Notes under the pieces: generated by a model
What the model was told of the DNA's origin: nothing
Databases searched by the model: none
The model's input: the letters and a program-made list of their open reading frames with translations, nothing else
Translations under genes and position numbers: made by a program
Assembly: GCA_963784195.1 (NCBI GenBank)
Contig: CAWARA010000031.1
Location: forward strand, 124,113 to 188,112
DNA length: 64,000 nucleotides
Source of the DNA: an uncultured Acidobacteriota bacterium
GTDB lineage: Bacteria > Acidobacteriota > Vicinamibacteria > Vicinamibacterales > 2-12-FULL-66-21
Direction: 5' to 3'
Shown: positions 8,779-64,000 of the stretch, in pieces
How positions within the stretch are numbered: position 1 is the stretch's first letter
Layout: each line of letters opens with the position of its first letter

Positions 8779-9609
8779 GTGGTCGAAGGAGACTCCGGGG
8801 ATGTGGCGAAGGCCGAGCGGATACTCGATCAATTGACGGCGCTGATCCGCGGCGGGTACAAGCTCGCCAAGGGAGACGTGAAGACCGCCTCCCAGTTGTT
8901 CGTCCAGGACGAGAACGTCGATTTCGCCGATTACTTCCTGCGCGGTGCCCCCAAGACTTCGGGCAAGCGGCAGGTGCTGCCGAAGAGCGTCAATCAGCGG
9001 CGCTATCTGGACGCGATCGAGAAACACGACATCGTGTTCGGGATCGGTCCGGCGGGGACGGGGAAGACGTACCTGGCGATGGCGCAGGCGGTGTCGTACC
9101 TGCTTGCCAAGCGCGTCAGCCGGATCATCCTGGCCCGGCCCGCGGTGGAAGCGGGTGAAAAGCTGGGGTTCCTTCCGGGCGATCTCCAGGAAAAGGTGAA
9201 CCCGTACCTTCGTCCGCTCTACGATGCCCTTTACGACATGATGGACCTCGAGCGGGTCGAGCGGATGATCGAGCGGGGAACCATCGAGGTCGCGCCCATT
9301 GCCTTCATGCGCGGCCGGACGCTCAACGATGCATTCGTCATTCTCGATGAGGCGCAAAACACGACGTCCGAGCAGATGAAGATGTTTCTGACGCGCCTCG
9401 GATTCGGATCGAAAGCAGTCATCACGGGGGATATCACTCAGATCGATCTGCCGATAGGCCGGACGTCCGGTCTTGTCGAAGCCATGAAGGTGGTCGCCAA
9501 CGTCGACGGTATCTCGTTCATCCATTTCGACGACAAAGACGTCGTCCGCCACCAGCTCGTGCAGCAGATCGTGAAGGCTTACGAATCCTACGGTGGATCC
9601 CGACAGTAA
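8779..9609 (+). CDS. ybeZ: PhoH family ATPase (YbeZ-like). Minimal model from the first canonical start; homology extends upstream to about 8641
   Basis: P-loop [11 protein letters not shown] and the PhoH signature ([16 protein letters not shown]...YLRPLYDAL...[17 protein letters not shown]). The in-frame upstream 54 codons (8617-8778) align to the conserved PhoH N-terminus but contain no ATG/GTG/TTG. Confidence 0.85.
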
Positions 9610-10144
9610 ACGCTTCAGCGTCTCGGTGACCGACGGCGGCGGCCGCCGGATACGGGACGGCGGCCTGGGCCGCTGGCTCGAATCGATCGCGCCCGCCCGC
9701 GCCCGAGGCGAGGTCGCGGTGGCGCTGGCGACCGATGCACGCGTCCGCACCCTCAATCGCCAGTACCGACGCAAGGATCGGACGACCGACGTCCTGGCCT
9801 TTCCCTCAGAGGAGCACCGAGTCCCCGCCTTCGCCAAGGCTACGGCGGGCAAGCCGAGCACCGAGCACCGAATCCCGAGTCCCGAGTCCCGAGTTCTCGG
9901 AGACATCATCATTGCCACCGGTGTTGCCCGCCGTCAGGCGCGCGACGCGGGACACTCCGAACAGACCGAGTTGCGTGTGCTCGCGCTTCACGGCCTTCTC
10001 CACCTGCTCGGGTACGACCATCACGATCGGGCAGATCGTGGACGCATGGCGAGGGCCGAGGCGCGCTTGCGGAGTCGAGGCGGCTTGCCAGCGGGGCTGA
10101 TCGAGCGCGCAAGCGGACGCTCAGCCCGTCGGACGGATAGATGA
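9593..10144 (+). CDS. ybeY: Endoribonuclease YbeY (rRNA maturation factor) with an unusual repeat-derived internal insertion
   Basis: Motifs DVLAFP...LGDIIIA...[11 protein letters not shown] (zinc-binding H..H....H). The stop TGA 10142-10144 overlaps the corC ATG at 10141 (ATGA). Confidence 0.8.
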
Positions 10145-11391
10145 TGCCCGCGCTGCTGCTGGTCCTCGCGATGGCGGCCGTCTACGTGGGGACCATTGAG
10201 ACGGCGTTCAGCTCGCTCATGCGGCTATCGCTGCGGCTGATGGCCGAGCGCGGCGGCCGCAACGATCGCCTGGGCTTCTATCTGGACGATCCGGTCCAAC
10301 TGTTTCTCCCGGCCCGCCTGTTGCTCGGCCTGATCTTCTCGCTCGCCACGGTCGTGATCGCCGTCATGACCGGCCGCACCGGCTTCCAATCCATCGGCAT
10401 GCTGTTGCTGTTCGTGGCGGTGTTCATCCTGGTCTTCGAGCACATCCTGCCGTTGTTGATCGTGCGCCGGAATCCGGAGCGCGCGCTGGAGCTCCTACTG
10501 CCGCCGTTCGACGTGGCGGTCAGCTTCCTGCAGCCGCTGACGAGCTGGCTGATCAACCTGATCATGGACAAGAAGGACCGATCGCCTGGTCCGCCTACCA
10601 CGGTCGAGGAAGAGCAGCGTGAAGCGATGCGGCAGTTCCCGGAGCCGTCAGAGGAGCACGTGCTGATCGAGCGCGAGGAACGCCGCCTGCTGCAATCGAT
10701 CGTCGATTTCGGCGATACGCTGGTCCGCGAGGTCATGACCCCGCGCCCGGACATCGTCGCGATTCCCTCGGGTGCGACGCTGGACGAGCTGCGCGCGCTG
10801 TTCCGGGAGCAGGAATACTCGCGGATTCCCGTCTACGAGGAGAACCTCGACAACATCCTCGGAGTGGTCTTTGTAAAAGATCTGATCATGCTCGGCGACG
10901 AGGCAACAGGTTCACCGCCCATCGTGTCGCTGATGCGGCCCGTGTCGTTCGTGCCCGAAACCAAGCGGGTGCCAGAGCTGCTCAAGGAGTTCCAGCGCCA
11001 GCGCGTGCAGATCGCCATCGTGGTCGATGAATACGGCGGGACTGCTGGACTGGTCACGCTCGAAGACCTGCTGGAGGAGATCGTCGGCGAGATCCGCGAC
11101 GAGTACAACGTCGAGACCGAACCGGTCGTGGACGAAGGCAATGGGTCGTGGGTGTTCAGCGCGAAGGTGAATATCGACGAGGTTCGGGAGCGGCTCGGCG
11201 TGGCCATCGAGCTGGATGGCAGCGAGACGGTTGCCGGCTTCGTGCTGACACGGGTCGGCCGCGTGCCGAACCCCGGCGAGACGTTCGATCTCGATGGTCT
11301 CGTCGTCGAAGTCCTGGAAGCAGACCGCCGCCGGATTCACAAGGTTCGCTTCCGCCGGGCGCCGCAGCCCGCCGAGCTGGAACCGCGCTGA
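10141..11391 (+). CDS. CNNM/CorC-HlyC family transporter (DUF21–CBS pair–CorC_HlyC), YbeX-like
   Basis: N-terminal TM DUF21 region, two CBS domains, and a C-terminal transporter-associated domain (GGTAGLVTLEDLLEEIVGEI). It is the third gene of a ybeZYX-type operon. Confidence 0.85.
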   Translation: MMPALLLVLAMAAVYVGTIETAFSSLMRLSLRLMAERGGRNDRLGFYLDDPVQLFLPARLLLGLIFSLATVVIAVMTGRTGFQSIGMLLLFVAVFILVFEHILPLLIVRRNPERALELLLPPFDVAVSFLQPLTSWLINLIMDKKDRSPGPPTTVEEEQREAMRQFPEPSEEHVLIEREERRLLQSIVDFGDTLVREVMTPRPDIVAIPSGATLDELRALFREQEYSRIPVYEENLDNILGVVFVKDLIMLGDEATGSPPIVSLMRPVSFVPETKRVPELLKEFQRQRVQIAIVVDEYGGTAGLVTLEDLLEEIVGEIRDEYNVETEPVVDEGNGSWVFSAKVNIDEVRERLGVAIELDGSETVAGFVLTRVGRVPNPGETFDLDGLVVEVLEADRRRIHKVRFRRAPQPAELEPR

Positions 11392-11394
11392 CGG

Positions 11395-11556
11395 AATGGG
11401 CGATGGGCGATGGGCGATGGGCGAAGGCGTGAAAGACAATAGGAAGCCTGACCCATTGCCCATGGCCCATTCCCAATCGCCCATTGCCCATCGCCCATTG
11501 CCCATCGCCCATTGCTCTCCGCCCATTGCCCATTCCCAACGCCCATCGCCCCATCG
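11395..11556. repeat. Heptanucleotide tandem repeat array: (ATGGGCG)~4, about 25-bp spacer, then inverted (CCCATYG/CGCCCAT)~14
   Basis: Read directly: gaatgggcgatgggcgatgggcgatgggcga ... cccattgcccatggcccattcccaatcgcccattgcccatcgcccattgcccatcgcccattgctctccgcccattgcccattcccaacgcccatcgcccc. The forward and inverted arrays can pair into a long hairpin. It lies between the corC stop and the era start. Confidence 0.85.
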
Positions 11557-11570
11557 GCAGGAAGCGTGTG

Positions 11571-12494
11571 ATGGCGGCTGCGCCTCGCGCGGGATACGCG
11601 TCCCTGATCGGCCGGCCCAACGCGGGCAAGTCCACGCTCCTGAATCAGATCATCGGCGAGAAGATCGCCATCGTTTCCGACAAGCCTCAGACCACCCGCA
11701 ACCGGATACTCGCCGTCAAGAACGTGGAGGCCGGCCAGATCGTGTTCGTGGATACGCCGGGGATCCACCGGCCGCTCCACCGCCTCAACGTGCGCATGGT
11801 CGATGCGGCTGTGGACACGTTGCGCGAGGTCGACGTCGTCGCGCTCGTGTTCGATGCATCGACGCGGCCGGGGAGGGGCGACGAGTACGTCTCGAATCTC
11901 CTGCGTGGCGCGCGCACGCCTGTCGTGCTGGTGCTCAACAAGATCGATCTCGTCACCAAGCACAAGCTCCTGCCGCTCATCGAGCAGACGCAGAAATGGC
12001 ACGACTTCGCCGCGATTGTGCCGGTGTCTGCGGTCACCGGCGACGGTGTCGATCGGCTCGAGCGCGAGCTGCTCGCACACTTGCCCGAGAGCGATCCCAT
12101 ATACCCGGACGATTTCCTCACCGATCAGCCAGAGCGGGTCTTTGTCGCCGAAGCGGTGCGCGAGAAAGTACTGAAGCACACGCGGGCCGAGCTGCCATTT
12201 TCCACGGCAGTCGTGGTCGATCAGTTCGACGAGACCGAACGCGATCGCCTGCTTCGCCTCTACTGCACGATCTACGTGGAGCAGGAGTCGCAGAAGCCAA
12301 TCGTGATCGGGCGAGGTGGGGAGATGCTGAAGCGCATCGGCACAGAAGCCCGCCTGGATCTCGAGCGCTTCTTCGATACCAAGGTCTTTCTCGACTTGCG
12401 CGTCAAAGTCAACGCCGACTGGCGGAATGATGACCGCACGCTCGACGAGCTCGGCGTCCCCCGCACAACCCGCAGACCAACTAAGCGCCGATAG
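11571..12494 (+). CDS. era: GTPase Era
   Basis: G1 GRPNAGKST, G3 DTPG, G4 NKID, and a C-terminal KH domain. ATG 11571 is preceded by 'aggaag'. Confidence 0.9.
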   Translation: MAAAPRAGYASLIGRPNAGKSTLLNQIIGEKIAIVSDKPQTTRNRILAVKNVEAGQIVFVDTPGIHRPLHRLNVRMVDAAVDTLREVDVVALVFDASTRPGRGDEYVSNLLRGARTPVVLVLNKIDLVTKHKLLPLIEQTQKWHDFAAIVPVSAVTGDGVDRLERELLAHLPESDPIYPDDFLTDQPERVFVAEAVREKVLKHTRAELPFSTAVVVDQFDETERDRLLRLYCTIYVEQESQKPIVIGRGGEMLKRIGTEARLDLERFFDTKVFLDLRVKVNADWRNDDRTLDELGVPRTTRRPTKRR

Positions 12495-17671: not shown

Positions 17672-17757
17672 CTGTCGGGGCTCGGGACTCGTAGCTCGGT
17701 AAGCTACCGATCCCGGCTCGTATCGATGAGAATGCGAGTCCCGAGTCCCGAGCACCG
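17672..17757. repeat. Intergenic nested inverted repeat built from GGGACTCG/CGAGTCC heptamer units
   Basis: gctcgggactcg (17680-17691) pairs with cgagtcccgagc (17742-17753). There is an inner tcggta-agc-taccga hairpin. The right arm is cgagtcccgagtcccgagcacc, which also occurs inside ybeY (9855-9900). Confidence 0.5.
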
Positions 17758-19438: not shown

Positions 19439-19441
19439 AGC

Positions 19442-19546
19442 CGTAGTTCGTGGGCCGTGGTTCGTGTCTCGCCGAACGACAGTTTGAATTGAAAGAGGTG
19501 CGTAGCCCGTCGACGAGACACGGACTACGAACCACGGACCACGGCA
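19442..19546. repeat. glyQ–glyS intergenic long imperfect inverted repeat made of GTTCGTG/CACGGAC units
   Basis: cgtagttcgtgggccgtggttcgtgtctcg ... cgagacacggactacgaaccacggaccacgg. Confidence 0.5.
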
Positions 19547-39528: not shown

Positions 39529-39940
39529 GGCAGGAGGGGACGAGGGGACGGAGGGAACGGAACAAGCTTCAACTCGGAGACTCAGAGCAACGGAGTTCCT
39601 CTAACCTGAGCGCTCGGAGCCGATGCCGGCCCGGCCGTAGGCCGGGCCGGGCGATCGACCGACACCCCGCGGGCACAAGCCGCCTCCACCCTTCGCCCGC
39701 GGCTTGTGTCCGCGGGGTGTCGGTCGATCGCTCGCCGCGCTGCGCGCGGCGGCATCGGCGGGTTGGCGCGTGGTGTCTCGTGGCCTGTCACGAGATGTGT
39801 AGGATCATCAGGCCACGGCCGGCCGGCGATTCCCGCCGCGTGCACGGCGGCGCGTCGTCCGCGCGCTGAAGCCGCTTGCCTCCGTTTCTCCGAGTCTCTG
39901 AGTTGAAGCTTGTTCCGTTCCCTCCGTCCCCTCCCCCTGT
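39529..39940. repeat. MITE-like nested palindromic element, about 410 bp, with about 45-bp terminal inverted repeats and about 7 internal GC-rich hairpins
   Basis: Left arm 39541-39586 'cgaggggacggagggaacggaacaagcttcaactcggagactcaga' is the reverse complement of right arm 39888-39935 (one mismatch). An internal 30-bp stem cgaccgacaccccgcgggcacaagccgc//gcggcttgtgtccgcggggtgtcggtcg and several shorter hairpins are present. CTAGG flanks both ends. Confidence 0.6.
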
Positions 39941-39960
39941 GCCCTCCGTAGAACTCCTCC

Positions 39961-41524: not shown

Positions 41525-43996
41525 ATGAGAAACCCTGTGCAACTTCTTCCACTTCTGGCGTGGACGCTGCTGCCGGTCATGCTGGCGGGGGACGCCCGAG
41601 CCCAGCCGCCCTGCGCAACCTGCGTGGCGATACTCGTCCCGGCAGGCGCCGCCGACCTGCTTCCCGGTGGGCTCGATGGCCTGACAGTGATCGTGGAGGT
41701 GTCTCCAGGCGAAGAGCAGAGAGCAGCAGGGAGTGTCGACTTGATTCGGCGCAAAGGCGGGAAGGCCGGAGTGCTCGTCACAGGTGCGTCCGAAGCATCG
41801 ACCAATTTGCCGCGAGTCGATCTGCTAATCGTTGACGTGAGCCGGGACCGGGCGAATGAGGGGACACCGTTCGAGCTTCGGAAGCGGCTGGCCGCCCTTC
41901 GGGGCGAGCTCCCCGCTGGGCGCCTCGGCATCTTGATGGCGTCGGCTTCCGATTCCGGAAGTCTCGTTCACGAGCTCGCCCCGTATGTGGATTTCGTCGT
42001 CTGGGGCAATGGGCCGCCGGCCTCTTCAGTTACTGCAGTCTGGCAACACGGCGGCGAGGTAAGTAGCGCCCTCGATGCGATGAATCTGACGAGAGCCAGC
42101 AGTGCTGAAAACGTGCTCGTTCGTCCCACGCTCGACAGCCTCACCCGGACGGTCTCGGATCTCGTCCACGCGAGATCGATGCTTGCTTCACACCTCGACG
42201 TGGTCGCGGCACGTGCATTGAGGATTGACGAGATCGTCGCGAGGCATCAGGCGTCGGTGGCGAGACAGGCGGCACGCATTCACTCGCTCATCTCGACCGG
42301 GACGCTGACGGTGACGTTCGAGGCGCCAGGTTTCCCGGCGCCAATCACCGTCAGCGCCGAATCGATCGCCTACGCAGTTGGCCCGCACGCCGACATCGAA
42401 TTGCGCTCGGTGCGCGTCAACGGGATCGAGTTCCGGGGCTCGGGCATTCCGCGTCTCCCAATCATCGAGCCTGAACGCGTCTCGACGCCTCCACTGACGA
42501 TCGCGTTGACGGACGCGTACCGTTACGAGTTGCGCGGCACCGACGAGGTCGAGGGGACTCGATGCTACGTCGTGGACTTCGAACCTGTCTCGCGAAAGGG
42601 TTCGTTCTTTACGGGCCGGTCGTGGATCGATGTCGAGACCTTCGGCCTGGTCCGTGTCGAGGCGCGTCAGACCGGTTTGCGCGGGCCGATCGTCGCGTCC
42701 GAGCAGGTTGACGAGTACCGCCGCGCGAGCGGGAATCTCTGGCTGCCCAGCCGCTCTCATGTGAAGCAGCTATACGAAGGGGCTGCGCACCGGACGCCTA
42801 TCGATCGCGTGCTCGTTACGGCGAACCACGAGATTGATGCGCCGGATTTCGAGACGCGCCGACTGGTCGCACACGCGTCCAACGCGTTGATGCTGCGCGA
42901 CAGCCCTTCGGGCTTCCGGTATGTCCGGCCATCGACGGACGCCGGGATCCGGCCGTCAGGCGCGCCAGCCGAGACTGAGCCCGACGCCGGCGATCGCGCC
43001 AGTCATGTCCGGACGATCGTGATGGGGGCGATGTTCGATCCGAACATCAGCTATCCACTTCCATTTGCCGGCTTGAGCTACGTCGATTTCGATCTGTTCG
43101 GCACGGGAACGCAGCTCAACGGCTTCTTCGGCGGGTCGTACGGACAACTGGCCATCTCGGTGCCGTCGCTCGGAGGCACCCGCTGGCAACTCGGCGGCCG
43201 CGGGTTCGCGATCCTGACATCGTTCAACGACCGGTCATTCGTCGACGGCCGCGAACGCTATGACGCGAACATCAGCCAGCGTCCGGCGCACGGTTCAGTC
43301 TGGCTCGTTCGCCCGCTGACGACGCGGGTGTCGGTCAAGGCGGGATACGAGCTGGACTACGTGCGGTACCGCGCCAACGACACAACGGCAGACACGTTCG
43401 CCGTCCCCGCCGATCAGCTCGTCCATGGCTTCCGCGCATCGGTCGAGGCTCAGCGGGGCGGCTGGCGGGCGAGCGCATGGTGGAACCCCGCCGTCCGTTC
43501 CGGCTGGCGTTCATGGGGGGCGCTCGAGAACAGCGAGTATCGCGCCGATCATCACGACTTTCAGCGGGCCGGCATCTCGCTGACGCGGATCACCGTGCTC
43601 TCTCCGGCGCTCGTGGTTCGAGGTGAGGGGAGCTGGATGATGGGCCGCGACCTCGACCGGTTCAGCCGGATGGCGTTCGATGCATTTGAGAATCGTCTTC
43701 GTGGTTTTCCTGCGGCCCTGATCCGGTATGATCGCGGCGCGGTGCTGCGTGGCACCGCCGCCTGGTCGCTCGGATCGCGAATGCGCCTGGACGGGTTCGT
43801 GGATACGGCGTTCGTCCACGACCCGGGACTGAGTGACGGATTGACCCGGCTGACCGGTGTCGGAGGCGCACTCGAAGTGCCGGCGCCCTTCGGCATGCTC
43901 GTCGCTGCGGAGTGGGGCTACGGCATTCAGGGACGTCGCGCCGACGGCGGCCGGGGCACACAGGTCGTCCGCATCACGGGTTACAAGATTTTCTGA
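41525..43996 (+). CDS. Large secreted/outer-membrane protein: signal peptide, a LolA-like central domain, and a C-terminal predicted beta-barrel ending in ...YKIF
   Basis: Signal peptide MRNPVQLLPLLAWTLLPVMLAGDARA. A C-terminal aromatic residue (F) is typical of OMP barrels. No close family recognised. Confidence 0.55.
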   Translation: MRNPVQLLPLLAWTLLPVMLAGDARAQPPCATCVAILVPAGAADLLPGGLDGLTVIVEVSPGEEQRAAGSVDLIRRKGGKAGVLVTGASEASTNLPRVDLLIVDVSRDRANEGTPFELRKRLAALRGELPAGRLGILMASASDSGSLVHELAPYVDFVVWGNGPPASSVTAVWQHGGEVSSALDAMNLTRASSAENVLVRPTLDSLTRTVSDLVHARSMLASHLDVVAARALRIDEIVARHQASVARQAARIHSLISTGTLTVTFEAPGFPAPITVSAESIAYAVGPHADIELRSVRVNGIEFRGSGIPRLPIIEPERVSTPPLTIALTDAYRYELRGTDEVEGTRCYVVDFEPVSRKGSFFTGRSWIDVETFGLVRVEARQTGLRGPIVASEQVDEYRRASGNLWLPSRSHVKQLYEGAAHRTPIDRVLVTANHEIDAPDFETRRLVAHASNALMLRDSPSGFRYVRPSTDAGIRPSGAPAETEPDAGDRASHVRTIVMGAMFDPNISYPLPFAGLSYVDFDLFGTGTQLNGFFGGSYGQLAISVPSLGGTRWQLGGRGFAILTSFNDRSFVDGRERYDANISQRPAHGSVWLVRPLTTRVSVKAGYELDYVRYRANDTTADTFAVPADQLVHGFRASVEAQRGGWRASAWWNPAVRSGWRSWGALENSEYRADHHDFQRAGISLTRITVLSPALVVRGEGSWMMGRDLDRFSRMAFDAFENRLRGFPAALIRYDRGAVLRGTAAWSLGSRMRLDGFVDTAFVHDPGLSDGLTRLTGVGGALEVPAPFGMLVAAEWGYGIQGRRADGGRGTQVVRITGYKIF

Positions 43997-44098
43997 AGAG
44001 CGGGAAGAGAGCGGCCGATGTCAACTCCCGACTCCCAAGCTCCGACTCCCAAGCAGAACACAGTCGATCGGCCGAGAGGTCATTGGGCTCACCGCAAG

Positions 44099-45070
44099 AT
44101 GGGAGTTAGAGGAGACCGCGTGAACGCGGTAACGGCTGTCGCTGCGTTCCTTGTCGTCGCCACTGCGGTGCCGTTGCTGGCGCAGACGTTCCGCGCCCGT
44201 GTCGACCTGGTCCACTTCCCTGTGGTCGTCACCGACAAGGAAGGCGCGCCGATCACGGGTCTCACGAAAGACGACTTCGAGATCGTCGAGCAGGGCAAGC
44301 CGCAGTCGATCACGTACTTCTCGGTCGGCGATCCGAACGACAGCAGCCGTCTCGGCGAGGTCCTTCCCCTGCACATCGGCCTGGCCCTCGACACCAGCGG
44401 CAGCATGGATCAGGACATCCACGAAGTCCGCACCGCGGTCGTCAAATTCCTCAACGCTAATCCAGCTGCGGTCGACGTCACCCTGGTGAACTTCGACACG
44501 GAAGTGCGCGTCTCGCGGTATGGGTCCAACGAGTACGCGCGGCTGATCGAGCGCATCCGGACGCGCAAGCCCGAGGGGTGGACGGCGTTCTATGACGCCC
44601 TGGGCGTCTACCTGAACGGGGCCGTGAGCCAGGACGGCCAGAAAATCCTGCTCGTCTATACCGACGGCGGCGACACCCGCAGCTCGCTGACGTTCTCCGA
44701 GCTGCTCGACCTGCTGAAGGCGTCGGACGTCACCCTCTACGCGATCGGCTATCTGGAGAGGCAATCGAGCTCCTCGCGCAACGAAGCTCGCATGCAGTTA
44801 CAGAGGATGGCGGCGATGACCGGCGGTCAGGCCTACTTCCCGGCGAGCGTCAAGGAGCTGGACCGGATCTACGAGAGCATCCAGAAGGAGATCGCGGCCC
44901 GCTACAGTCTGGGCTACATCTCGAGCGACGCACGCATGGACGGCAGCTGGCGGAAGGTGGAGGTCAAACTGAAACGAAAAGACCTCAAGAACGTGAAACT
45001 CCGCACCCGATCGGGCTACTTCGCTCCCTACCGCGAAGGATCCGGCTGGCTGTTCCCCCGCATCCCCTGA
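44099..45070 (+). CDS. VWA domain-containing protein (VWFA-related Acidobacterial-type domain)
   Basis: Signal peptide, a MIDAS-like DTSGSM, and the VWFA-related pattern (VNFDTEVR...GWTAFYDAL...TDGGDT). Confidence 0.75.
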   Translation: MGVRGDRVNAVTAVAAFLVVATAVPLLAQTFRARVDLVHFPVVVTDKEGAPITGLTKDDFEIVEQGKPQSITYFSVGDPNDSSRLGEVLPLHIGLALDTSGSMDQDIHEVRTAVVKFLNANPAAVDVTLVNFDTEVRVSRYGSNEYARLIERIRTRKPEGWTAFYDALGVYLNGAVSQDGQKILLVYTDGGDTRSSLTFSELLDLLKASDVTLYAIGYLERQSSSSRNEARMQLQRMAAMTGGQAYFPASVKELDRIYESIQKEIAARYSLGYISSDARMDGSWRKVEVKLKRKDLKNVKLRTRSGYFAPYREGSGWLFPRIP

Positions 45071-54296: not shown

Positions 54297-55841
54297 TCAA
54301 CGTGGGTCCGATGGATGTCGCGATCGCGAGCGTGCTTCGCGGCGGAACTGCCGCCAGGCTGTTGCCAGAGTGTGATCTCTGAGCCGCTCCGCGTCGACGT
54401 CATCCTCGGTCCTGCCTGCCATCGCAATCGCGGAATTCCGCTGTCCGTACACCGTGAACCCGGCTCTCCCTGGGAACAGGTGCCCGACCAGGTCGAACCT
54501 GGCTAACGGCACGTATCCGGGCGGGGCGGCCTGGTGCACTTCCGTTGGGACGTTCTCTAACACCACATAGGTTGACGGCAAGATCATGCGTGAATTGAGC
54601 CCCGAGCCGTCGATGAACGTACGGCGGCCTTCATAGGCGACCCAACCGAATCCGCTCTCCACGACTTCGGTTGGCGCTGCAAACTGATCGATGAAAACGC
54701 CAGCCAGGCGGCGATCCGAATCGATGGCGTTCGCCAAAGCAATCGACGGTGGATTCCTGGCCTCGGCGAGCATCTGGCGCCAGTGGGGAATCGCTACGAG
54801 GACGAGGACGACGGCGACCACCGCCTTCCACCCGTTCGTGCCCGCCGCGGCGGCTCCTGATGCGGCCAGCCAGGTCAGAGCAGCCGGAATAGCCAGGTAC
54901 CAGGGGTAGAGGTCACCGAGATTCACCACCGAATAACCCGCGCTATGGATAAGGAACCACCCGAAGATACTGACGACGATCATCCGGCGCGAGGGCGTTG
55001 CCTTTGCCGACACAACTAGCCCCATCACGCCGAGCACCCAGAGCAGGTAGCGGGTGTCGAAAGCCATGAATTCGACGACCCACAAGTGATGCATCGCCTT
55101 TTCAGATCCATGCGTCAACTTTGCGGTGAGCGATTGAGGCCAGGGCCGGCCGAAGTAGGCCCAGGCGAACAGGAACCACGGCAGGCTGACGAGCGCTGCG
55201 GAAACAAGCGTGCGGACAGGCAGACGCCGGTGCGCGATGATTGACGCGGCGGTTATCGCCAGGATCAGAGCGGCCGCATCCAGCTTCGTCACGAGCGCCA
55301 GGCCGAGAAATCCGCCTGCGACGACGTCGCGCCTCGCGTTCGAGGCGAGGATTGCCGCCAGTCCAAGGGAAAGCGCGAGCGGCAGTTCGAGACCCGCGAG
55401 AGCCTGGGTTCGCCAGAACGTGTCGACCGGGACTGCGAATGCCACGAGCAGGCCCATCCACACGCCTGCGGCCTGCACGGTGAGAGCACTCGCGAGCACC
55501 GCGGCGAGAACATAAAACGCAGACGCCAATACTCGCGCGGTGCGTTCGACATCCAGCCCCACCCGCGGCCCGAGTGAAATCAAGAGCGTCCACAGCGGAT
55601 TGCTGGCGCCACAGACGCGCTCGTGGTCGTTGTAGGTAAAGCCTTGACCGTTGGCCAGGCGCTCGGCGTATCGCAGTCCAATCGCCGCATCGTCGCCGAG
55701 GATCGTCGGCTGCGCCGCCACGCTCAACCAGGCCGACAGGATTGCTGCGAGGGCGTAGATCGCGATGTGCTGCCAGGGGATCTGGCGGTTGCCGGACCAG
55801 GAGCGCGCGCCGCTTGCCGCGATCGACTCCGATGCGATCAC
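54297..55841 (-). CDS. Polytopic membrane glycosyltransferase (GT-C fold, ArnT/PMT-like)
   Basis: More than 10 predicted TM helices. The N-terminal region resembles GT-C/GT39 loops (YAERLANGQGFTYNDHERVCGASNPLWTLL). Confidence 0.55.
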   Translation of the reverse strand: MIASESIAASGARSWSGNRQIPWQHIAIYALAAILSAWLSVAAQPTILGDDAAIGLRYAERLANGQGFTYNDHERVCGASNPLWTLLISLGPRVGLDVERTARVLASAFYVLAAVLASALTVQAAGVWMGLLVAFAVPVDTFWRTQALAGLELPLALSLGLAAILASNARRDVVAGGFLGLALVTKLDAAALILAITAASIIAHRRLPVRTLVSAALVSLPWFLFAWAYFGRPWPQSLTAKLTHGSEKAMHHLWVVEFMAFDTRYLLWVLGVMGLVVSAKATPSRRMIVVSIFGWFLIHSAGYSVVNLGDLYPWYLAIPAALTWLAASGAAAAGTNGWKAVVAVVLVLVAIPHWRQMLAEARNPPSIALANAIDSDRRLAGVFIDQFAAPTEVVESGFGWVAYEGRRTFIDGSGLNSRMILPSTYVVLENVPTEVHQAAPPGYVPLARFDLVGHLFPGRAGFTVYGQRNSAIAMAGRTEDDVDAERLRDHTLATAWRQFRREARSRSRHPSDPR

Positions 55842-55903
55842 AGTGGTTGGCAGAAGGGGGTTGGCAAAGGTGTGCCCGGTTAAGTATTCTACTCTTTCGA
55901 GTT

Positions 55904-55978
55904 GGGCGCTTGGCTCAGCGGTAGAGCACCGCCTTCACACGGCGGGGGTCAGTGGTTCGAATCCACTAGCGCCCACCA
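55904..55978 (+). tRNA. tRNA-Val (anticodon CAC)
   Basis: Cloverleaf readable: acceptor gggcgct/agcgccc, D-loop tggctcagcggtagagca, anticodon stem ccgcc/ggcgg with loop ttCACac, T-arm ggttcgaatcc, 3' ACCA. Confidence 0.9.
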
Positions 55979-56232
55979 ACTAAAACAGAATTAATCAGTA
56001 ATTACAGCGAACGAGGCGCCACCGTTGGCGCCTCTTGGTGTCTCAGGTGTGCATTAGTCGTGCGCTGTTGAAGGCGGGGCCTGGATGGCTAAAGCAGAGC
56101 TTGATCTCCGGAAGAACCTCTTACAAATTGCAGGGAGCCGTAGCATCGGCTGGTGCGGCGTCCGGGGCTTTGTCCCGGTCGTCGCTGCCGGAGCGTTTTA
56201 CAGAATGAACGCTACCTGGCAGCCGGTCTTGC

Positions 56233-56265
56233 GCCAGCAAGGGGGAGAGATGCGTGGGACTCGCC
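56233..56265 (+). repeat. 33-bp direct repeat, copy 1 (GCCAGCAAGGGGGAGAGATGCGTGGGACTCGCC), containing the Shine-Dalgarno and ATG of the lipoprotein gene
   Basis: 30 of 33 identity with 57020-57052. Confidence 0.7.
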
Positions 56266-56996
56266 CCGCACACCACAGTGCAGATGACCAACGTGAGGAA
56301 TCCATGACGCCTCGACTGACACGCCTCTCGGGGACCCTGGCTGTCGCGCTCGTCGTCGGCGGCATCGGTTGTTCACCGACCGCGCCGGCGACACCACCGA
56401 CCGCGCCGTCGGCACCGCCGTCGGTTTTGAACGACCTCGTGATTAAGGGAATCGTGCCAGTAGCTGGAGAGCCGGCGGAGCATACGGACGTGCGGATCTC
56501 AGGTGACGGCTTTCAGCCCGGTGCGACCGTGACATTCGATGGTAGCGCGACGACAGCAACTGTCGAAAGTGGACACTATATCCTCACGACGGCGCCGCCT
56601 CATCCAGCTGGCGCAATCGACATCGTCGTCATCAATCCGGACGGCCGAACGAGCCGCTTGGAGAAGGCGTTTACCTACGTCGAAGATCTCCTAGCGAGCG
56701 GTGACATCACTATCGGCTCCGGCGACTCGGTCAAAGCAACGCTTAATCCACACGATAGAACGTGCACGTTCGACGATACTGCCTGCCGATTGATATTCAT
56801 CCGGGCACCTGCTGATGACATGGTCGAGGTAGAGCTAGTATCGTTAGATCGTCGGGAAAGCATCGGCTTGTACGACCCGATGCCATTTAGGGCGCCGAGT
56901 CACTTCCCGAAGCAATTGACAGTGAGGGGCGGTCAACAGGTGTGGGTCATCGGAGAGGCGGCGCTGTTCAGACTGACGGCTCGCCTTGCGAAATGA
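56250..56996 (+). CDS. Lipoprotein with an IPT/TIG-like domain
   Basis: Strong Shine-Dalgarno AAGGGGGAG before ATG 56250. Lipobox VVGGIGC; a second possible start at 56304. Pro/Thr/Ala linker, then ISGDGFQPGATVTFDG (IPT/TIG-like). Confidence 0.6.
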   Translation: MRGTRPAHHSADDQREESMTPRLTRLSGTLAVALVVGGIGCSPTAPATPPTAPSAPPSVLNDLVIKGIVPVAGEPAEHTDVRISGDGFQPGATVTFDGSATTATVESGHYILTTAPPHPAGAIDIVVINPDGRTSRLEKAFTYVEDLLASGDITIGSGDSVKATLNPHDRTCTFDDTACRLIFIRAPADDMVEVELVSLDRRESIGLYDPMPFRAPSHFPKQLTVRGGQQVWVIGEAALFRLTARLAK

Positions 56997-57019
56997 CGAC
57001 CGTCGACCGCAGCCAGTCG

Positions 57020-57052
57020 GCCGCCAGTAAGGGGGAGTGATGCGTGGGACTC
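57020..57052 (+). repeat. 33-bp direct repeat, copy 2 (GCCAGTAAGGGGGAGTGATGCGTGGGACTCGCC)
   Basis: It sits immediately after the lipoprotein gene stop and encodes only an 11-codon ORF. Confidence 0.7.
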
Positions 57053-57064
57053 GCCGATCGAGAC

Positions 57065-57346
57065 TCATAGCGATGACCGCAGCGAAGGCACATGAAGCTC
57101 TGTTCCCACTTTTCTGCTTGAGGGCGTTCCGAGCGCGAGCTTCATCGTTTCGTGCAGTCGCCGCAGCGTGTTCTTGCCTACGCCTCGCCGGATTGACGAT
57201 CCACCGTTGAAGGATAAACCGGGGCTGAGGGCCGGCCTGATCACGTTCGGGTCTACTTCTGCCGAACGCACGGTTTCTTCCACTTCAGCGACACCAAGCA
57301 ACTCACGGCCGGTCTGTAGCCAACCCAAGCGCACGTCAGAACTCAA
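57065..57346 (-). pseudogene. Possible decayed C-terminal fragment of a tyrosine recombinase/integrase (very tentative)
   Basis: 'LQTGRELLGVAEVEETVRSAEVDP' loosely matches the integrase C-terminal 'IQELLGHSSITMTERYAHLSP' (about 8 of 19 identical). Low-GC context about 1.1 kb from the tRNA-Val 3' end. Confidence 0.2.
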
Positions 57347-57457
57347 GGGGAAGTCCTCAGAGACCCAAGGGGAGGTCCCGAGAGACTTCGGGCTCTCTTG
57401 CTGGTAGCGTGCAAACCCTCGCGTTGTGTCGCAGTAGTAGCAGGCTCGGAGGCAGAA

Positions 57458-57664
57458 ATGATCACTCCACCGTTGCCGCTGAATTGCCCCTGCCCGTTCT
57501 GCAAATCCAACGACGTCGATTTCGCGGCCATAGGTGAGCGCATCTTATTCTGTCGGTGCAAGCACTGTTGGGCCCAGTTCAGCATTAAAGATTTTGATGC
57601 GCGCGAACAGCGAGTCGTGACAGCGAACCCACCGCGCCGATCTGGCTCGCGCGTTCAGCGCTGA
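57458..57664 (+). CDS. Small zinc-ribbon protein (CPCPFC...CRCKHC), hypothetical
   Basis: A 68-codon ORF with two CxxC pairs, in a low-GC region. Confidence 0.35.
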   Translation: MITPPLPLNCPCPFCKSNDVDFAAIGERILFCRCKHCWAQFSIKDFDAREQRVVTANPPRRSGSRVQR

Positions 57665-57801
57665 TCCAGCTACCAGCGGCGCGGATGACATATCTGGCAA
57701 ATCCGGTCATCGCCAGCGACAAATCTGACGCCCGCTAGAACACGCTCTGTGGTGGAGTAGGTGTGTGGATGTCATAACGCCGTTGATCGGTGCTTGGGCC
57801 G

Positions 57802-58095
57802 TCAACGTCCCCTCCACCCGTCTCGGATCATCGCGTCTCGCCACTCGTTTGCGATCCTCTGGATGTCGGCGGGATCGCGCACGAACTGACTTCGTGTGAA
57901 CGTGTCGTTCACGAGCAGACGGATCTCCCAGCCGAGCGGATGCGTCCAGAGCAAACAGACGGCGCGGACGCCGGTCACCCTCGTGAGGGTGAATAGTTCG
58001 CGGATCTGCTCGGGTGGACCGTTCCAATGCTTTCGTTGTGAGACGGACACTGGCCGATCACTTTCACACGTGCGTTTGCTAAAGCGGCGGAGCAT
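57802..58095 (-). CDS. Hypothetical protein (islet-borne)
   Basis: The C-terminal about 75 aa look protein-like (WNGPPEQIRELFTLTRVTGVRAVCLLWTHPLGWEIRLLVNDTFTRSQFVRDPADIQRIANEWRDAMIRDGW). The N-terminal part of the longer ORF is low-complexity. Confidence 0.3.
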   Translation of the reverse strand: MLRRFSKRTCESDRPVSVSQRKHWNGPPEQIRELFTLTRVTGVRAVCLLWTHPLGWEIRLLVNDTFTRSQFVRDPADIQRIANEWRDAMIRDGWRGR

Positions 58096-58612
58096 GTCGG
58101 CCCTGCGATGACCGACACGCTCCTGACCACACGCCGCTGACAGGGCGGGAGCGTGTGGTGCTGTACATCGTAACCGAGCGGCGTTCGTCCGATCGCCGTG
58201 TGTCAAAAGCGCACAGCTCAACGGACAACGTCCGCGAAGCAATAGGCTCGCGATATTCAGTTAAAAAGAGCCGCAGCTTCGAAGCCGACCTTGTCCGCCC
58301 TGATATCGTCCTCGTCGAGATACCCGGCATCGATAAGATCATCCGTTATTTCGCCGAAGTCGATTTCCTTAATCGAGGCATTGAAATGCGCGGCACTGAC
58401 GCCACCGAGCACGAAGGGCCGCACGGGTCCGCCGGTCGGCACGAGAAACTTAACGCCCCCACCGTAGTACGTGGCCGGTATCGTGCCGTCCAACTCCCAC
58501 CGCACACCGGTGAGACTTGTGAGCGACGCGGCTGCCGAATCGAGATCCGCTTGCCGCAGTCGGCAAGCGCGAAAACGAGAGGCCACACGCGGCTCCCAGG
58601 TGTGCGCAGGCG

Positions 58613-59743
58613 TTGACAGTGCGCGTGCTTGTCTGTACAAAGTCCTTTGCAATGCTGCGGATGTGGGTCCGGCGGATTGTTCTTGCACTCCTCGGTGCCG
58701 GTGCCGCCGGCGTGCTCGCGCTGTGGCTGGAGCACCGCCTGCCGACCGAGTTGCCCGCGCCGACTGGGACCTTCGCACTCGGACGGACAAGCTACACGTG
58801 GGACGGCATAGGCGCCTGGGTGTGGTACCCTGCCGCGATCGCAGCGCCCGCCGATGACTATTTGCCGCCGGCGATTCGCACCAACTGGGAGCACGAGCGG
58901 CCCGCGTTCATCAACTTTCTAACTCGCGATCTCTCGAGCGTGCGCGGCCACAGCGCCAATGACGTAGCGATTTCGAACGCGGAGCCAAACTATCCAGTCG
59001 TCATCCTGCGCGCCGGTGGATCGGGGTCGGCGGCGCTGAGCTTCTCGTCGCTGGCCGAAGACCTCGCCAGCCACGGCTATGTCGTCGTAGGACTTGATAT
59101 CGCAACCACAGCTAATCCGGAACTCTGCGCGGGCCGCAACGACGACGAAGACTGCGCGACGAAGATCATGGCGCCGCTTATCAGCCGCATCGGCCACGCC
59201 ATCGATCACCTTCAGGAGCTCGCGGAGTCCGATGCGCGCTTCAAATCGAGAGTCGACCTCACACGCGTTGGCGTGTTCGGTCACTCCTTCGGCGGCGCGC
59301 AGGCCGCACAGTTCTGCTCGCAAGACACCCGCTGCAAAGCCGGCATCAACATCGATGGCCGGCCGTTTGGCACCGTCATCACGAACGGAATACCGGTGCC
59401 GTTCATGTTTCTGCTCTCCGATCACGGCACGCCGAAGGACGTCGTGAGCCAGCGCATTCTGAGTCAGATACAGGCAATTTACGATCGGCAGCCGCACGAC
59501 TCGCGCCTGCGGGTTGTCATCCGCGGCTCGCACCACTTCACGTTCAGCGACGATGGCGCGCTGCTGAAAAGCGCCGTGTTCCGAGGAGTGCTGCGCGTCC
59601 TTGCCGGCCTCCGGATCAATGGCCGCCGTCAAGTGGAAGTCACAGCTTATGCTGTGCGAACGTTCTTCGATCAGCATCTCAAGGGTGGGGCCGACAGTCG
59701 AGGCATTCTGGCAACGGTTCCTGAAATTGTGGTGGTACCTTAG
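58613..59743 (+). CDS. Alpha/beta hydrolase, PAF-acetylhydrolase-like lipase family, N-terminal TM anchor
   Basis: Nucleophile elbow GHSFGG and a plausible catalytic Asp/His downstream. The start is uncertain (58613 or 58652). Confidence 0.65.
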   Translation: MTVRVLVCTKSFAMLRMWVRRIVLALLGAGAAGVLALWLEHRLPTELPAPTGTFALGRTSYTWDGIGAWVWYPAAIAAPADDYLPPAIRTNWEHERPAFINFLTRDLSSVRGHSANDVAISNAEPNYPVVILRAGGSGSAALSFSSLAEDLASHGYVVVGLDIATTANPELCAGRNDDEDCATKIMAPLISRIGHAIDHLQELAESDARFKSRVDLTRVGVFGHSFGGAQAAQFCSQDTRCKAGINIDGRPFGTVITNGIPVPFMFLLSDHGTPKDVVSQRILSQIQAIYDRQPHDSRLRVVIRGSHHFTFSDDGALLKSAVFRGVLRVLAGLRINGRRQVEVTAYAVRTFFDQHLKGGADSRGILATVPEIVVVP

Positions 59744-62226: not shown

Positions 62227-62862
62227 CTACGTCCCGTAGAGCCTGTCCCCAAAATCGCCGAGTCCCGGAACGATGAACTTGTGCTCGTTCAGACACTGAT
62301 CGACGACCGGCGTATAGATGTGTACTTCCGGATGGTGCTTCTCTACGAGCTCGATCCCTTCCGGCGCGGCGACGATGCAGATCATCCGGACGTCGCGGGC
62401 GCCGGCTTCGGTCAGCATGTCGAGTGCGGCGACTGCGCTGCCGCCTGTCGCCAGCATCGGATCGATCATCAGCACGTAACTGCCATCGAGCCGCTTGGGC
62501 AGGCGCGAGTAGTAGCGTGATGCGACAGCGGTCAACTCGTCGCGCTGCAATCCGATGTGTCCCACGCGCGCCTTGGGAATCAGCTCCAGGACGGCGTCGA
62601 GCATCCCCAGACCGGCCCTCAGGACCGGCACCACGACAACTTCACCGCTGATGCGGCGGCCGTCCGCAGGGCCGAGCGGCGTCAACACCTGCACGTCGGT
62701 GACCGGAATGTCGCGCGTCGCTTCGGCCGCCAGCAACAAGCTGATCCTGACAGCCATCCGCCGGAAAAGCTCCGGAGGAGTCGCGGAGTCGCGCAACGTT
62801 GCCAGCGCATCGTGAACGAGCGGATGTGTCACGCGGTGTAGCGGCACGGGAACACTATACAC
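62227..62862 (-). CDS. upp: Uracil phosphoribosyltransferase
   Basis: VTHPLVHDAL..., VVPVLRAGLGM, MIDPMLATGGS, PGLGDFGDRLYGT. The start is tentatively the GTG at 62862. Confidence 0.85.
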   Translation of the reverse strand: MYSVPVPLHRVTHPLVHDALATLRDSATPPELFRRMAVRISLLLAAEATRDIPVTDVQVLTPLGPADGRRISGEVVVVPVLRAGLGMLDAVLELIPKARVGHIGLQRDELTAVASRYYSRLPKRLDGSYVLMIDPMLATGGSAVAALDMLTEAGARDVRMICIVAAPEGIELVEKHHPEVHIYTPVVDQCLNEHKFIVPGLGDFGDRLYGT

Positions 62863-62877
62863 AAAGGACGGCGTTAA

Positions 62878-62926
62878 ATGGGCGATGGGCGATGGGCGAT
62901 GGGCGATGGGCGATGGGCGATGGGCG
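62878..62926. repeat. (ATGGGCG)x7 perfect heptanucleotide tandem array directly upstream of upp
   Basis: Seen directly: atgggcgatgggcgatgggcgatgggcgatgggcgatgggcgatgggcg. This is the same unit as the array upstream of era. Read on the upp coding strand it is (CGCCCAT)7, the same orientation as before era. Confidence 0.85.
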
Positions 62927-62986
62927 ATGGGTACGGGCGGTGACGATGGCCGGGGGTGGAGAGAAACGCTGATAGAATTTCGGCCC

Positions 62987-64000
62987 ATGCTGTCGCGCGT
63001 GTGCGCGCTCCTCGTGCTGTCGGGCGCTCTGCTATCGGCCTGGCAGCCGGACCGGCGTCCGATCTCGCTCGTCGTGGCGGGCGGAGCGGTGGTCACGATG
63101 GACGCGTCGGGACGCATCCTCGATCCAGGCGCTGTCGCGATCGAGGGCCGCGACATCATCGCCGTAGACACGCCCGAAGCAATCGCCGCGCGTTACGCGC
63201 CAAAGGAGACGATCAACGCGTCCGGCCACGTCGTGCTCCCCGGCCTCATCAACACGCATACCCATGCGCCGATGGTGTTGTACCGCGGTCTCGCGGATGA
63301 CCTGGCGCTCATGGAGTGGCTGCAGAAATACATTTTTCCCGCGGAGGCGAAGACGGTCAGCCCTGAATTCGTCAGGGCCGGCACGCGGCTCGCGGTTCTC
63401 GAGATGATCCAGTCCGGGACCACGGCGTACGCGGACATGTATTACTTCGAGGAAGAGATCGCGAAGGCGACGAAAGAAGCGGGCATCCGCGGCGTGCTCG
63501 GGCAGACGATCATCGAGTTTCCGGTGCCCGACGCCAAGACACCGACGGAAGGCATCGCGCGGGCGACCGAGTTCATCCGGCAGTGGAGTAATGACGAGCT
63601 GATCGTGCCGGCCATCGCGCCGCACTCGATGTACACGCTCGACACCGCCACGCTCAAGGCGATCAGGGCGGTTGCCGACCGGGAACGTGCGCCGGTCATA
63701 ACACACCTCGCCGAAACGCGTGACGAGATCAAGATTGGCAGGGATCGCTACAAGCTGACGCCCACGCAGTTTCTCGAATCGATCGGATTCTGGGGACCGC
63801 GGACCATCGCCGCGCATGGCGTGTGGCTGACGCCAGCCGACATTCGCGTGCTCGCCCGGCGGCACGTCGGCGTCGCGCACAATCCCGAGAGCAACATGAA
63901 GCTCGCCAGCGGCACGGCGCCGGTCCTCGAGCTGCGGAAAGCAGGTGTCGCGGTCGGGCTTGGGACCGACGGCGCGGCCAGCAACAACGACCTCGACATG
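62987..64000 (+). CDS. Amidohydrolase-superfamily protein (MtaD/SAH-deaminase/chlorohydrolase-like), signal peptide; 3' end outside window
   Basis: ATG 62987. Motifs include GLINTHTHAPM (HxH metal site), HLAET, AHGVWL, and VAHNPESNMKLASG. The frame is open to the window end. Confidence 0.75.
   Translation, partial: MLSRVCALLVLSGALLSAWQPDRRPISLVVAGGAVVTMDASGRILDPGAVAIEGRDIIAVDTPEAIAARYAPKETINASGHVVLPGLINTHTHAPMVLYRGLADDLALMEWLQKYIFPAEAKTVSPEFVRAGTRLAVLEMIQSGTTAYADMYYFEEEIAKATKEAGIRGVLGQTIIEFPVPDAKTPTEGIARATEFIRQWSNDELIVPAIAPHSMYTLDTATLKAIRAVADRERAPVITHLAETRDEIKIGRDRYKLTPTQFLESIGFWGPRTIAAHGVWLTPADIRVLARRHVGVAHNPESNMKLASGTAPVLELRKAGVAVGLGTDGAASNNDLDM

Follow-up and report, generated by a model that had tools for sequence, protein, structure and literature searches.

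In a 64,000-nt stretch of DNA from an uncultured soil member of the Vicinamibacterales (Acidobacteriota; contig CAWARA010000031.1 of assembly GCA_963784195.1), referred to here as the window, tandem arrays of a single heptanucleotide, GGGCGAT, are found at two places. One fills the spacer between corC and era and the other separates upp from an amidohydrolase gene. The window has a G+C content of 64.4%, and those homologues of its Era and Upp proteins that have a named source come from the Vicinamibacterales; a look-up of its exact Era sequence found no entry. An earlier note, made from the letters alone, had pointed to heptamer arrays at both places, and Tandem Repeats Finder (TRF) does locate them, at 11396-11424, 11452-11556 and 62878-62931. 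When two successive units are searched for with at most two mismatches, the window gives 18 matches where shuffles lead one to expect 1.46, and none of 100 shuffled sequences gave as many; the repeats are therefore real, and it is their geometry that had to be corrected. The features of the corC-era spacer are as follows.

11396-11424, plus strand: G-rich arm, (ATGGGCG)x4.1, perfect (TRF; inverted-repeat pairs I2-I12)
11425-11451, plus strand: hairpin loop or spacer of 27 nt, unique sequence (sequence, BLAST)
11452-11556, plus strand: C-rich arm, about 15 units CCCATTG/CCCATCG, the reverse complement of the G-rich arm (TRF, RNA folds)
11559-11573, plus strand: AGGAAG motif resembling a ribosome-binding site (11559-11564) and the era start codon ATG (11571-11573) (sequence, Era homologues)

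The corC gene (10141-11391), whose product has CNNM, CBS and CorC_HlyC domains by Pfam, ends in a TGA stop codon at 11389-11391, and only 4 nt separate this from the G-rich arm. The arm contains four G3 tracts, at 11398-11400, 11405-11407, 11412-11414 and 11419-11421. The 27-nt loop is partly kept in two relatives, L115 and L199, and nowhere else; BLAST matches to the loop were limited to the window and L115. The C-rich arm is imperfect, with 72-80% matches, and TRF scores it best with a 14-nt dimer, CCCATTGCCCATCG, as the repeating unit. Its end is 14 nt from the era ATG, and CGGCAGGAAGCGTGTG stands between the two. Thus what had been taken for one array of uniform orientation from 11395 to 11556 does consist of the repeats, but its first four units are inverted and are set off from the others by the loop. 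The translation region of era, AGGAAG-N6-ATG, lies wholly 3' of the array, so changes in unit number leave the spacing for translation initiation unaltered. A small open reading frame in the loop or C-rich arm was considered and rejected: the ATG at 11462 is not in the era frame and is unconserved.

The two arms are able to pair as a stem of about 30 bp, and a hairpin is predicted (inverted pairs I2-I12). The minimum free energy (MFE) of the RNA is -97.8 kcal/mol over 191 nt, with a z-score of -7.0 relative to dinucleotide shuffles. In comparative folds the hairpin of the window has -87 kcal/mol and that of L115 -67 kcal/mol, so the stem persists across alleles. When the G strand is folded in isolation a G-quadruplex is predicted (ViennaRNA with the G-quadruplex option); with both arms present the hairpin wins. 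No terminator-like site was found in 11000-12000 or 62500-63300 in a search for intrinsic terminators, and the stem of the corC-era spacer has no U-tract behind it, the next sequence being CGGCAGGAAGCGUGUG. The genes phoH, ybeY, corC and era run in the same direction and are tightly packed, which looks like an operon with the array inside it. Against Rfam 15, the only hit in the window to pass the gathering scores is a tRNA elsewhere; a local scan by E-value returned only sub-threshold models of eukaryotic miRNA hairpins (at most 34 bits against gathering scores of 60-137), which signifies no more than a long hairpin.

The second locus differs in having one arm only, and its features are as follows.

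62878-62931, minus strand: 7.7 perfect units in one array; the upp sense strand has CGCCCAT, the plus strand ATGGGCG (TRF)
62854-62859, minus strand: TATAGT, a -10-like box 6 nt upstream of the upp GTG at 62847 (alignment A1)
62970-62978, plus strand: TGATAGAAT, resembling an extended -10 box, 8 nt before the amidohydrolase ATG at 62987 (alignment A1, Pfam)

The array stands between the divergent upp (minus strand) and amidohydrolase (plus strand, assigned by Pfam) genes and has eight G3 tracts on its G strand. No partner arm was found, and neither a hairpin nor another structure is predicted here. The seven copies reported earlier at 62878-62926 are indeed perfect; the array extends to 7.7 units. 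Likewise, CGCCCAT is the sense-strand unit nearest to both start codons, as had been stated; the distance given, 10-20 nt, is right for era, but not for upp, where the array ends 30 nt upstream of the best-supported start, the GTG at 62847, which gives a protein of 206 aa. A distance of 15 nt is obtained only with an alternative start giving 211 aa.

Alignment A1, of five strains, shows two nucleotide-invariant blocks, ATTCTATCAG and TGTATAGTG(N4-5)CGTGC, and the segment between them is an array of 0 to about 105 nt. TATAGT sits within TGTATAGTG, and the TGATAGAAT box sits within the other invariant block, which reads ATTCTATCAG on the opposite strand. In the relative L197 the stretch from the upstream GTG to the body of upp has a shifted, unconserved frame. 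Because of this frameshift, and because the Pfam profile for uracil phosphoribosyltransferase (UPRTase) starts at residue 7 of the 206-aa Upp and most homologues have 206-207 aa, the invariant block probably serves as a promoter element rather than as coding sequence. The mRNAs of upp and the amidohydrolase gene would then both be leaderless. A scan for consensus promoters gave no match at either locus, in the case of upp because there is no match to a -35 element. The position of the conserved boxes suggests that the upp array is probably upstream of both back-to-back core promoters and of both transcription starts, outside the upp mRNA. Since it is upstream of both -10-like boxes, it is not between promoter hexamers.

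Both loci vary in length among relatives, the behaviour of hotspots of slipped-strand mispairing, which the earlier note had proposed to check by counting copies, and they do so between conserved flanks.

era locus, window: 4 G-rich units; 15 C-rich units
era locus, L115 (flanks 96-98% nucleotide identity, Era 99%): about 3 G-rich units, still with four G3 tracts; 6 C-rich units
era locus, L199 (Era 95%): contig begins in the loop; 4 C-rich units
era locus, L200 (Era 87%): degenerate G-rich arm only, called as the first era codons; no C-rich units
era locus, L201, L202 and L203 (Era 88%): no G-rich and no C-rich units; 16-nt spacer or overlapping genes
upp locus, L197 (Upp 85%): no units; blocks and boxes 4 nt apart
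upp locus, L198 (Upp 85%): about 3 degenerate units
upp locus, L195 (Upp 94%): about 6 CCCATYG units
upp locus, window: 7.7 perfect units
upp locus, L196 (Upp 88%): about 12 CCCATTN units

The loop of L115 differs in part from that of the window. As the upp series is graded and its flanks are fixed, it looks like growth in place rather than the insertion of a finished element. The absence of the array from close relatives means that it is dispensable. It would seem likely that the arrays lengthen and shorten in place, in steps of 7 or 14 nt, through replication slippage. L200 is an example of a G-rich array fused to the era reading frame: its positions 362-400 read ATGGGCA, ATGGGCC, AGGGGCA, AAGGGCA, AGGGGCG, there is no C-rich arm, and the array runs directly into era, with MGNGPGAKGKGRSGYASL... 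as the N-terminus. A number of short metagenome contigs (L199, L116, L130, L157 and others) end in or beside arrays; this fits breaks in short-read assembly, and array lengths taken from such assemblies therefore need caution.

The earlier note had not recognised the arrays as a described element. Repeats that share their anatomy and their rules of placement were, however, described by Rehm, Wurmthaler, Li, Frickey and Hartig (PLoS One 2015; PMC4692102), as G-rich heptamer repeats of the "GGGNATC type", with the unit GGGAATC in Xanthomonas and GGGGAYT in Nostoc/Anabaena. Those repeats are dispersed, 89-93% intergenic and composed of 2-26 units, four being clearly favoured; paired convergent arrays, potential stem-loops, were noted in 70-75 cases; and the repeats lie nearer to their 5' neighbour (28 vs 160 nt). 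Length and sequence vary extensively between Xcc and Xac, the neighbouring genes are of housekeeping type across the board, phase variation was deemed unlikely and the function was left unresolved (Rehm et al, 2015). The same paper relays, from its reference 33, that heptameric simple-sequence repeats (SSRs) are over-represented in bacteria, with the idea that this reflects the footprint of DNA polymerase.

The arrays of the window match this description closely. Their 7-nt unit carries a G3 tract (G3N4) and is repeated well beyond twice (x4.1, and x7.7, with 15 inverted units in addition), both loci are intergenic, and the G-rich arms of both the window and L115 have four G3 tracts. The corC-era locus is a convergent inverted pair. 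The distance and strand rule is followed as well, with the G-rich arm 4 nt after the corC stop, the C-rich arm 14 nt before era and the upp array, with G antisense, 30 nt before its gene. What differs is the consensus of the unit, GGGCGAT (CGAT) rather than GGGNATC, which makes these repeats the same kind from another sequence family. The hosts differ too, here an acidobacterium of the Vicinamibacterales, with the GGGCGAT unit also present in many other phyla, and the heptamer arrays of this clade draw on many units besides G-rich ones. A further mark of the class is the formation of G-quadruplexes and i-motifs in vitro; for the present unit there is a ViennaRNA prediction of a G-quadruplex in the isolated G strand. 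The corC-era and upp arrays thus belong to the G-rich heptameric intergenic SSRs of the type of Rehm et al, one as a convergent hairpin pair and the other as a single array.

Other known repeats share some of these features. The tandem, intergenic and dispersed STRR heptanucleotides of cyanobacteria such as Calothrix PCC 7601, with several unit families per genome, are said to have been described by Mazel and colleagues in 1990 (reference 39 of PMC4692102); their units and their phylum differ from those found here. REP and BIME elements are extragenic palindromes that form stable hairpins in operon spacers and at convergent 3' ends, possibly stabilising mRNA. They are fixed palindromes of about 35 nt with a family consensus, unlike variable tandem units of 7 nt. 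The TAACTGA direct repeats, found between genes in marine Beggiatoaceae and in some Cyanobacteria and Bacteroidetes (MacGregor, 2015; PMC4679880), are alike in that one heptamer occurs in direct repeats across distant phyla. Most of these are found a few nt ahead of a start codon, essential genes included, the downstream genes show no functional pattern, and of their sets 169 are direct and one indirect (PMC4679880). TAACTGA is, however, AT-rich and lacks a G-tract, whereas GGGCGAT arrays are also found after stop codons and as inverted pairs. A 2025 survey of short tandem repeats (PMC12699852) does not mention heptamers.

One genome per species was scanned exactly for (CGCCCAT)3, so that at least three perfect units were required. 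At least 114 loci were found, in many phyla; their hosts belong to Acidobacteriota, Gemmatimonadota, Burkholderiales, Lysobacteraceae, Photobacterium, Streptomyces, Planctomycetota, Chloroflexota and others; a scan of viral contigs gave zero matches. Among the matches listed, 106 of 117 arrays are intergenic, array lengths run from 3 to 48 units and the most frequent number is four (29 of 117), a mode to be read with the three-unit minimum of the search in mind. Convergent 3' ends host 19 of 77 arrays among the matches listed. In the flanks of the cross-phylum loci there are, among the matches listed, 50 more heptamer arrays with other units.

The orientation of the arrays relative to genes, which the earlier note had suggested checking, is non-random. 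Among the matches listed, 57 arrays lie closer to the gene 5' of their G strand and 20 to the gene 3' of it (p = 3e-5). The 5' end of the G strand abuts the nearest gene, whatever the direction of that gene. It follows that the sense strand is G-rich just after stop codons and C-rich just before start codons: in the 50 nt preceding a start codon, C-rich sense strands outnumber G-rich ones 19 to 5 (p = 0.007), and in the 50 nt that follow a stop codon G-rich ones outnumber C-rich ones 21 to 12 (both among the matches listed). Where both flanks of a spacer are occupied, the same rule gives a convergent inverted pair with the G-rich arm first. An inverted partner is present within 160 nt of about one heptamer array in four. 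Inverted pairs of the GGGCGAT unit, among the matches listed, have the G-rich arm first in 23 cases and the C-rich arm first in 1, a few hairpins being counted by both arms; for other heptamer units the ratio is 20 to 9. A G-first pair is also G-first on the complementary strand, so that the direction of the flanking genes has no bearing on the polarity.

The window contains further heptamer arrays, with other units.

17676-17757, plus strand: sister hairpin, GGGACTC/GAGTCCC (inverted repeats I14, I22; RNA MFE -67 kcal/mol)
19440-19545, plus strand: sister hairpin, GTCCGTG/CACGGAC-type heptamers (inverted repeats I4, I24; RNA MFE -62 kcal/mol)
9854-9894, within the stretch 9813-9895, plus strand: in-frame heptamer array CCGAGCA/CCGAGTC, six units = 42 nt, in ybeY (9593-10144)

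The first of these fills the spacer between the mgtE stop (17648) and the recO ATG (17774), G-rich arm first, and ends 16 nt before the latter. The second fills the glyQ-glyS spacer, again with the G-rich arm first, in an operon whose genes must be co-expressed. Together with that of corC-era this makes three heptamer hairpins within the window, each between co-directional housekeeping genes. The GTCCGTG/CACGGAC-type unit also forms a hairpin just 3' of era in L159 (1864-2026). The array in ybeY is of the same unit family as the hairpin at 17676 and falls in a surface loop that YbeY has between its LAFP and LGDI motifs. This loop is hypervariable: the insert of L115 is 57 nt longer and unrelated, and those of L201 and L203 are shorter, still with SPES/SPET.

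In a clade sample of 341 kb of Vicinamibacterales DNA, consisting of the window and 80 era loci, TRF found 28 arrays of at least four copies with a period of 7 and no more than 4 with any other period, and the units are diverse. Hairpins made of other short repeats occupy the corC-era spacer in L127, L143, L187 and L192, and a 9-mer type does so in L180-L186. Nine relatives (L156, L159, L161, L168, L169, L175, L188, L142 and L202) have heptamer arrays from a few to about 45 nt after the era stop, several of them with an inverted partner. Most of the 80 era loci have neither a corC-era hairpin nor an array after era, and the site before era is therefore not special. The two GGGCGAT loci exemplify a tendency to heptamer repeats that is general in this clade and in many others.

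These observations are best accounted for if the arrays are slippage-prone G-rich heptameric simple-sequence repeats with the unit GGGCGAT, and not an on/off switch, a reading to which we give a probability of about 0.6. Such arrays are tolerated almost only in intergenic spacers. At corC-era the repeats are predicted to form a very stable stem-loop, in a transcript that is probably polycistronic, ending just before the ribosome-binding site of era; any effect would be graded and structural, on the processing or stability of the mRNA. A G strand without a partner may form a G-quadruplex, as predicted for the isolated G strand, and at upp it could do so in negatively supercoiled DNA. The bias near start codons may have a passive cause: a G-rich sense strand carries an AUG in each unit and no stop in any frame, which would give rise to upstream initiation, and L200 has a fusion of this sort. 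This cause fails for GGGAATC in Xanthomonas, and the polarity is therefore only partly explained.

Several points weigh against this reading. The same unit occurs at two dispersed loci within 64 kb, the GGGACTC unit also occurs at two, and several genomes hold 3-6 (CGCCCAT)3 loci each, among the matches listed; plain slippage on random seeds does not explain such a genome-specific preferred unit. The 23:1 polarity of the inverted pairs is unexplained by hairpin stability and hints at selection or a polar mechanism. In L009, a member of the Nitrospiraceae whose Era is 49% identical, a G-rich arm, a loop and a CGCCCAT arm stand right before era. This could be a coincidence among the 114 or more listed loci, for which a rough estimate gives p ~0.05. 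Arrays of the CCAAT/CCCAT type are also found at corC-era in L187 and L192 (Era identity 62-66%), and such recurrence could reflect a selected role at era. Finally, the gene calls of the survey came from our own GC3-based caller, which is crude.

The alternative that best survives is that the G-first hairpin is a selected RNA structure, kept for its action on the polycistronic mRNA; we consider it unlikely. Possible roles are those of an RNase III site, of a barrier to 3'-5' decay that uncouples the levels of corC and era, or of a means of hiding C-rich RNA from Rho, with read-through into era, recO and glyS. The very stable stems survive changes of allele (-87 kcal/mol in the window and -67 in L115, beside -67 and -62 for the sister hairpins), the hairpins exactly fill spacers in operons of co-expressed genes such as glyQ-glyS, hairpins recur at corC-era in several lineages with different units and are found in a Nitrospiraceae genome, and the strand-symmetric excess of G-first pairs is what an argument from co-transcriptional folding or from Rho predicts. 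However, in L201-L203 the two genes overlap or are 16 nt apart and have no hairpin, most of the era loci have none, arrays are equally common immediately 3' of era, and single arrays such as that at upp have no partner. As both arms use one unit, moreover, their complementarity is automatic and is no evidence of selection.

Rather doubtful, to our minds, is the broader proposal that an active or selected process stands behind the arrays in general, either a polar, sequence-specific seeding or extension of heptamers at gene boundaries or selection for G-first hairpins. It would fit the dispersal of one unit within a genome and across many phyla, and pairs that are G-first by about 20:1. Selected G-first hairpins can be imagined to shield C-rich RNA from Rho or to create RNase III sites at corC-era, mgtE-recO and glyQ-glyS. 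In the case of Rho, the G-rich arm would be transcribed first and the C-rich arm would pair with it on emergence, in agreement with the strand-symmetric polarity.

That the units are reiterated sites for a sequence-specific protein, which the earlier note had offered as a second possibility, seems quite improbable. The protein might be a post-transcriptional regulator binding CCCAUCG near starts, or a factor for G-quadruplexes or i-motifs, and a translational regulator has been proposed to bind the TAACTGA repeats (MacGregor, 2015; PMC4679880). The recurrence of one unit at two loci of the window, and at several in individual genomes, is as this would require, as is the enrichment of C-rich sense arrays close upstream of starts. 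Yet many different units are found among the loci of one genome, which speaks against one specific binder, and units drift at orthologous loci, CCCATCG becoming CCCATTA or CCCATTT at upp. A quarter or so of the arrays (the 19 of 77 among the matches listed) are at convergent 3' ends, the upp array, apparently located upstream of the promoter, would not be part of the mRNA, and no co-occurring candidate protein was found.

In the contingency loci of Haemophilus and Neisseria, a repeat in the coding sequence or between the promoter elements of a surface or restriction-modification gene toggles expression. Two reports (PMC2651432, PMC12721329) describe phase-variable SSR loci of this sort as short tandem repeats that vary by slippage, some of them intergenic. 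The earlier note took the present arrays for such an architecture, in which slippage alters promoter or 5'-untranslated-region spacing and toggles era or upp. Like contingency loci they are hypervariable in length among close strains, at both places, and a 7-nt unit in a spacer escapes reading-frame constraint. The position is nevertheless wrong and largely refutes the idea: the arrays are upstream of the -10-like boxes at upp and of AGGAAG at era, neither in coding sequence nor between promoter elements, and outside the region from -10 to start and the gap from ribosome-binding site to ATG. The neighbouring genes are essential or housekeeping ones (those for CorC, Era, UPRTase, the amidohydrolase, MgtE, RecO and GlyQ/GlyS), close relatives are free of arrays, and the same class of repeat occurs at 3' ends and between convergent genes. 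Rehm et al (PMC4692102) likewise reached a negative conclusion for the class, and we regard a switch as very improbable here.

Least credible of all is a miniature mobile element, a MITE- or REP-like palindrome inserted at these sites: the inverted-repeat architecture at corC-era and the dispersal of the unit in genomes and phyla recall one, but the loop occurs nowhere other than at this locus and its orthologues, terminal repeats are absent outside the arrays, nor was any target-site duplication identified, upp lacks a second arm, the graded upp series speaks for growth in place, the viral contigs had no match and Rehm et al (PMC4692102) saw no association with mobile elements. A regulatory hairpin specific to era, including a C-rich mimic of the 16S rRNA 3' end bound by the KH domain of Era, was also considered and rejected: the unit stands before unrelated genes too, the region just 3' of era has arrays as often, and close relatives do without the element.

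Some other parts of the window deserve mention. Between convergent genes for a Cys/Met PLP (pyridoxal phosphate) enzyme and a DHH-family protein lies a large nested palindrome (39529-39945), with outer arms of about 65 nt that contain GGAGGGGAC 9-mer repeats (39529-39595 and 39881-39945) and inner arms formed by a 41-nt inverted repeat that is 90% complementary (39643-39739). At 44024-44054, ACTCCCG/ACTCCCA heptamers follow the stop of a gene ending at 43996, and about 45 nt further on, before a GTG start, there is an inverted TGGGAGT (~44098-44106); the repeats from 44024 to 44106 may be a weak, decayed member of the heptamer hairpin class. Degenerate 12-nt tandem repeats (CGTGTGAACCCC), about seven units in two overlapping arrays, are found at 1143-1233 in a stretch of about 1 kb without a confident gene call. 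The GC3-based caller made no confident call in 55842-58711 either, which contains a tRNA (55904-55975) and a 22-nt tandem repeat (57336-57386); the flanking calls, 54297-55841 and 58712-59743, score low.

The arrays reveal no new regulatory system. In practice they break short-read assemblies and mislead the calling of start codons, as with the Era of L200 and the 211-aa Upp, and they could be used as strain-typing markers for uncultured soil Acidobacteria. The polarity of about 20:1 in favour of G-first pairs and the series of alleles provide handles on roles of G-quadruplexes, hairpins or shielding from Rho. A poorly understood class of repeats, known in Xanthomonas and Nostoc, is now extended to the Acidobacteriota (Vicinamibacterales) and, with one identical unit, to many phyla, and its published placement rules are valid for a different unit.

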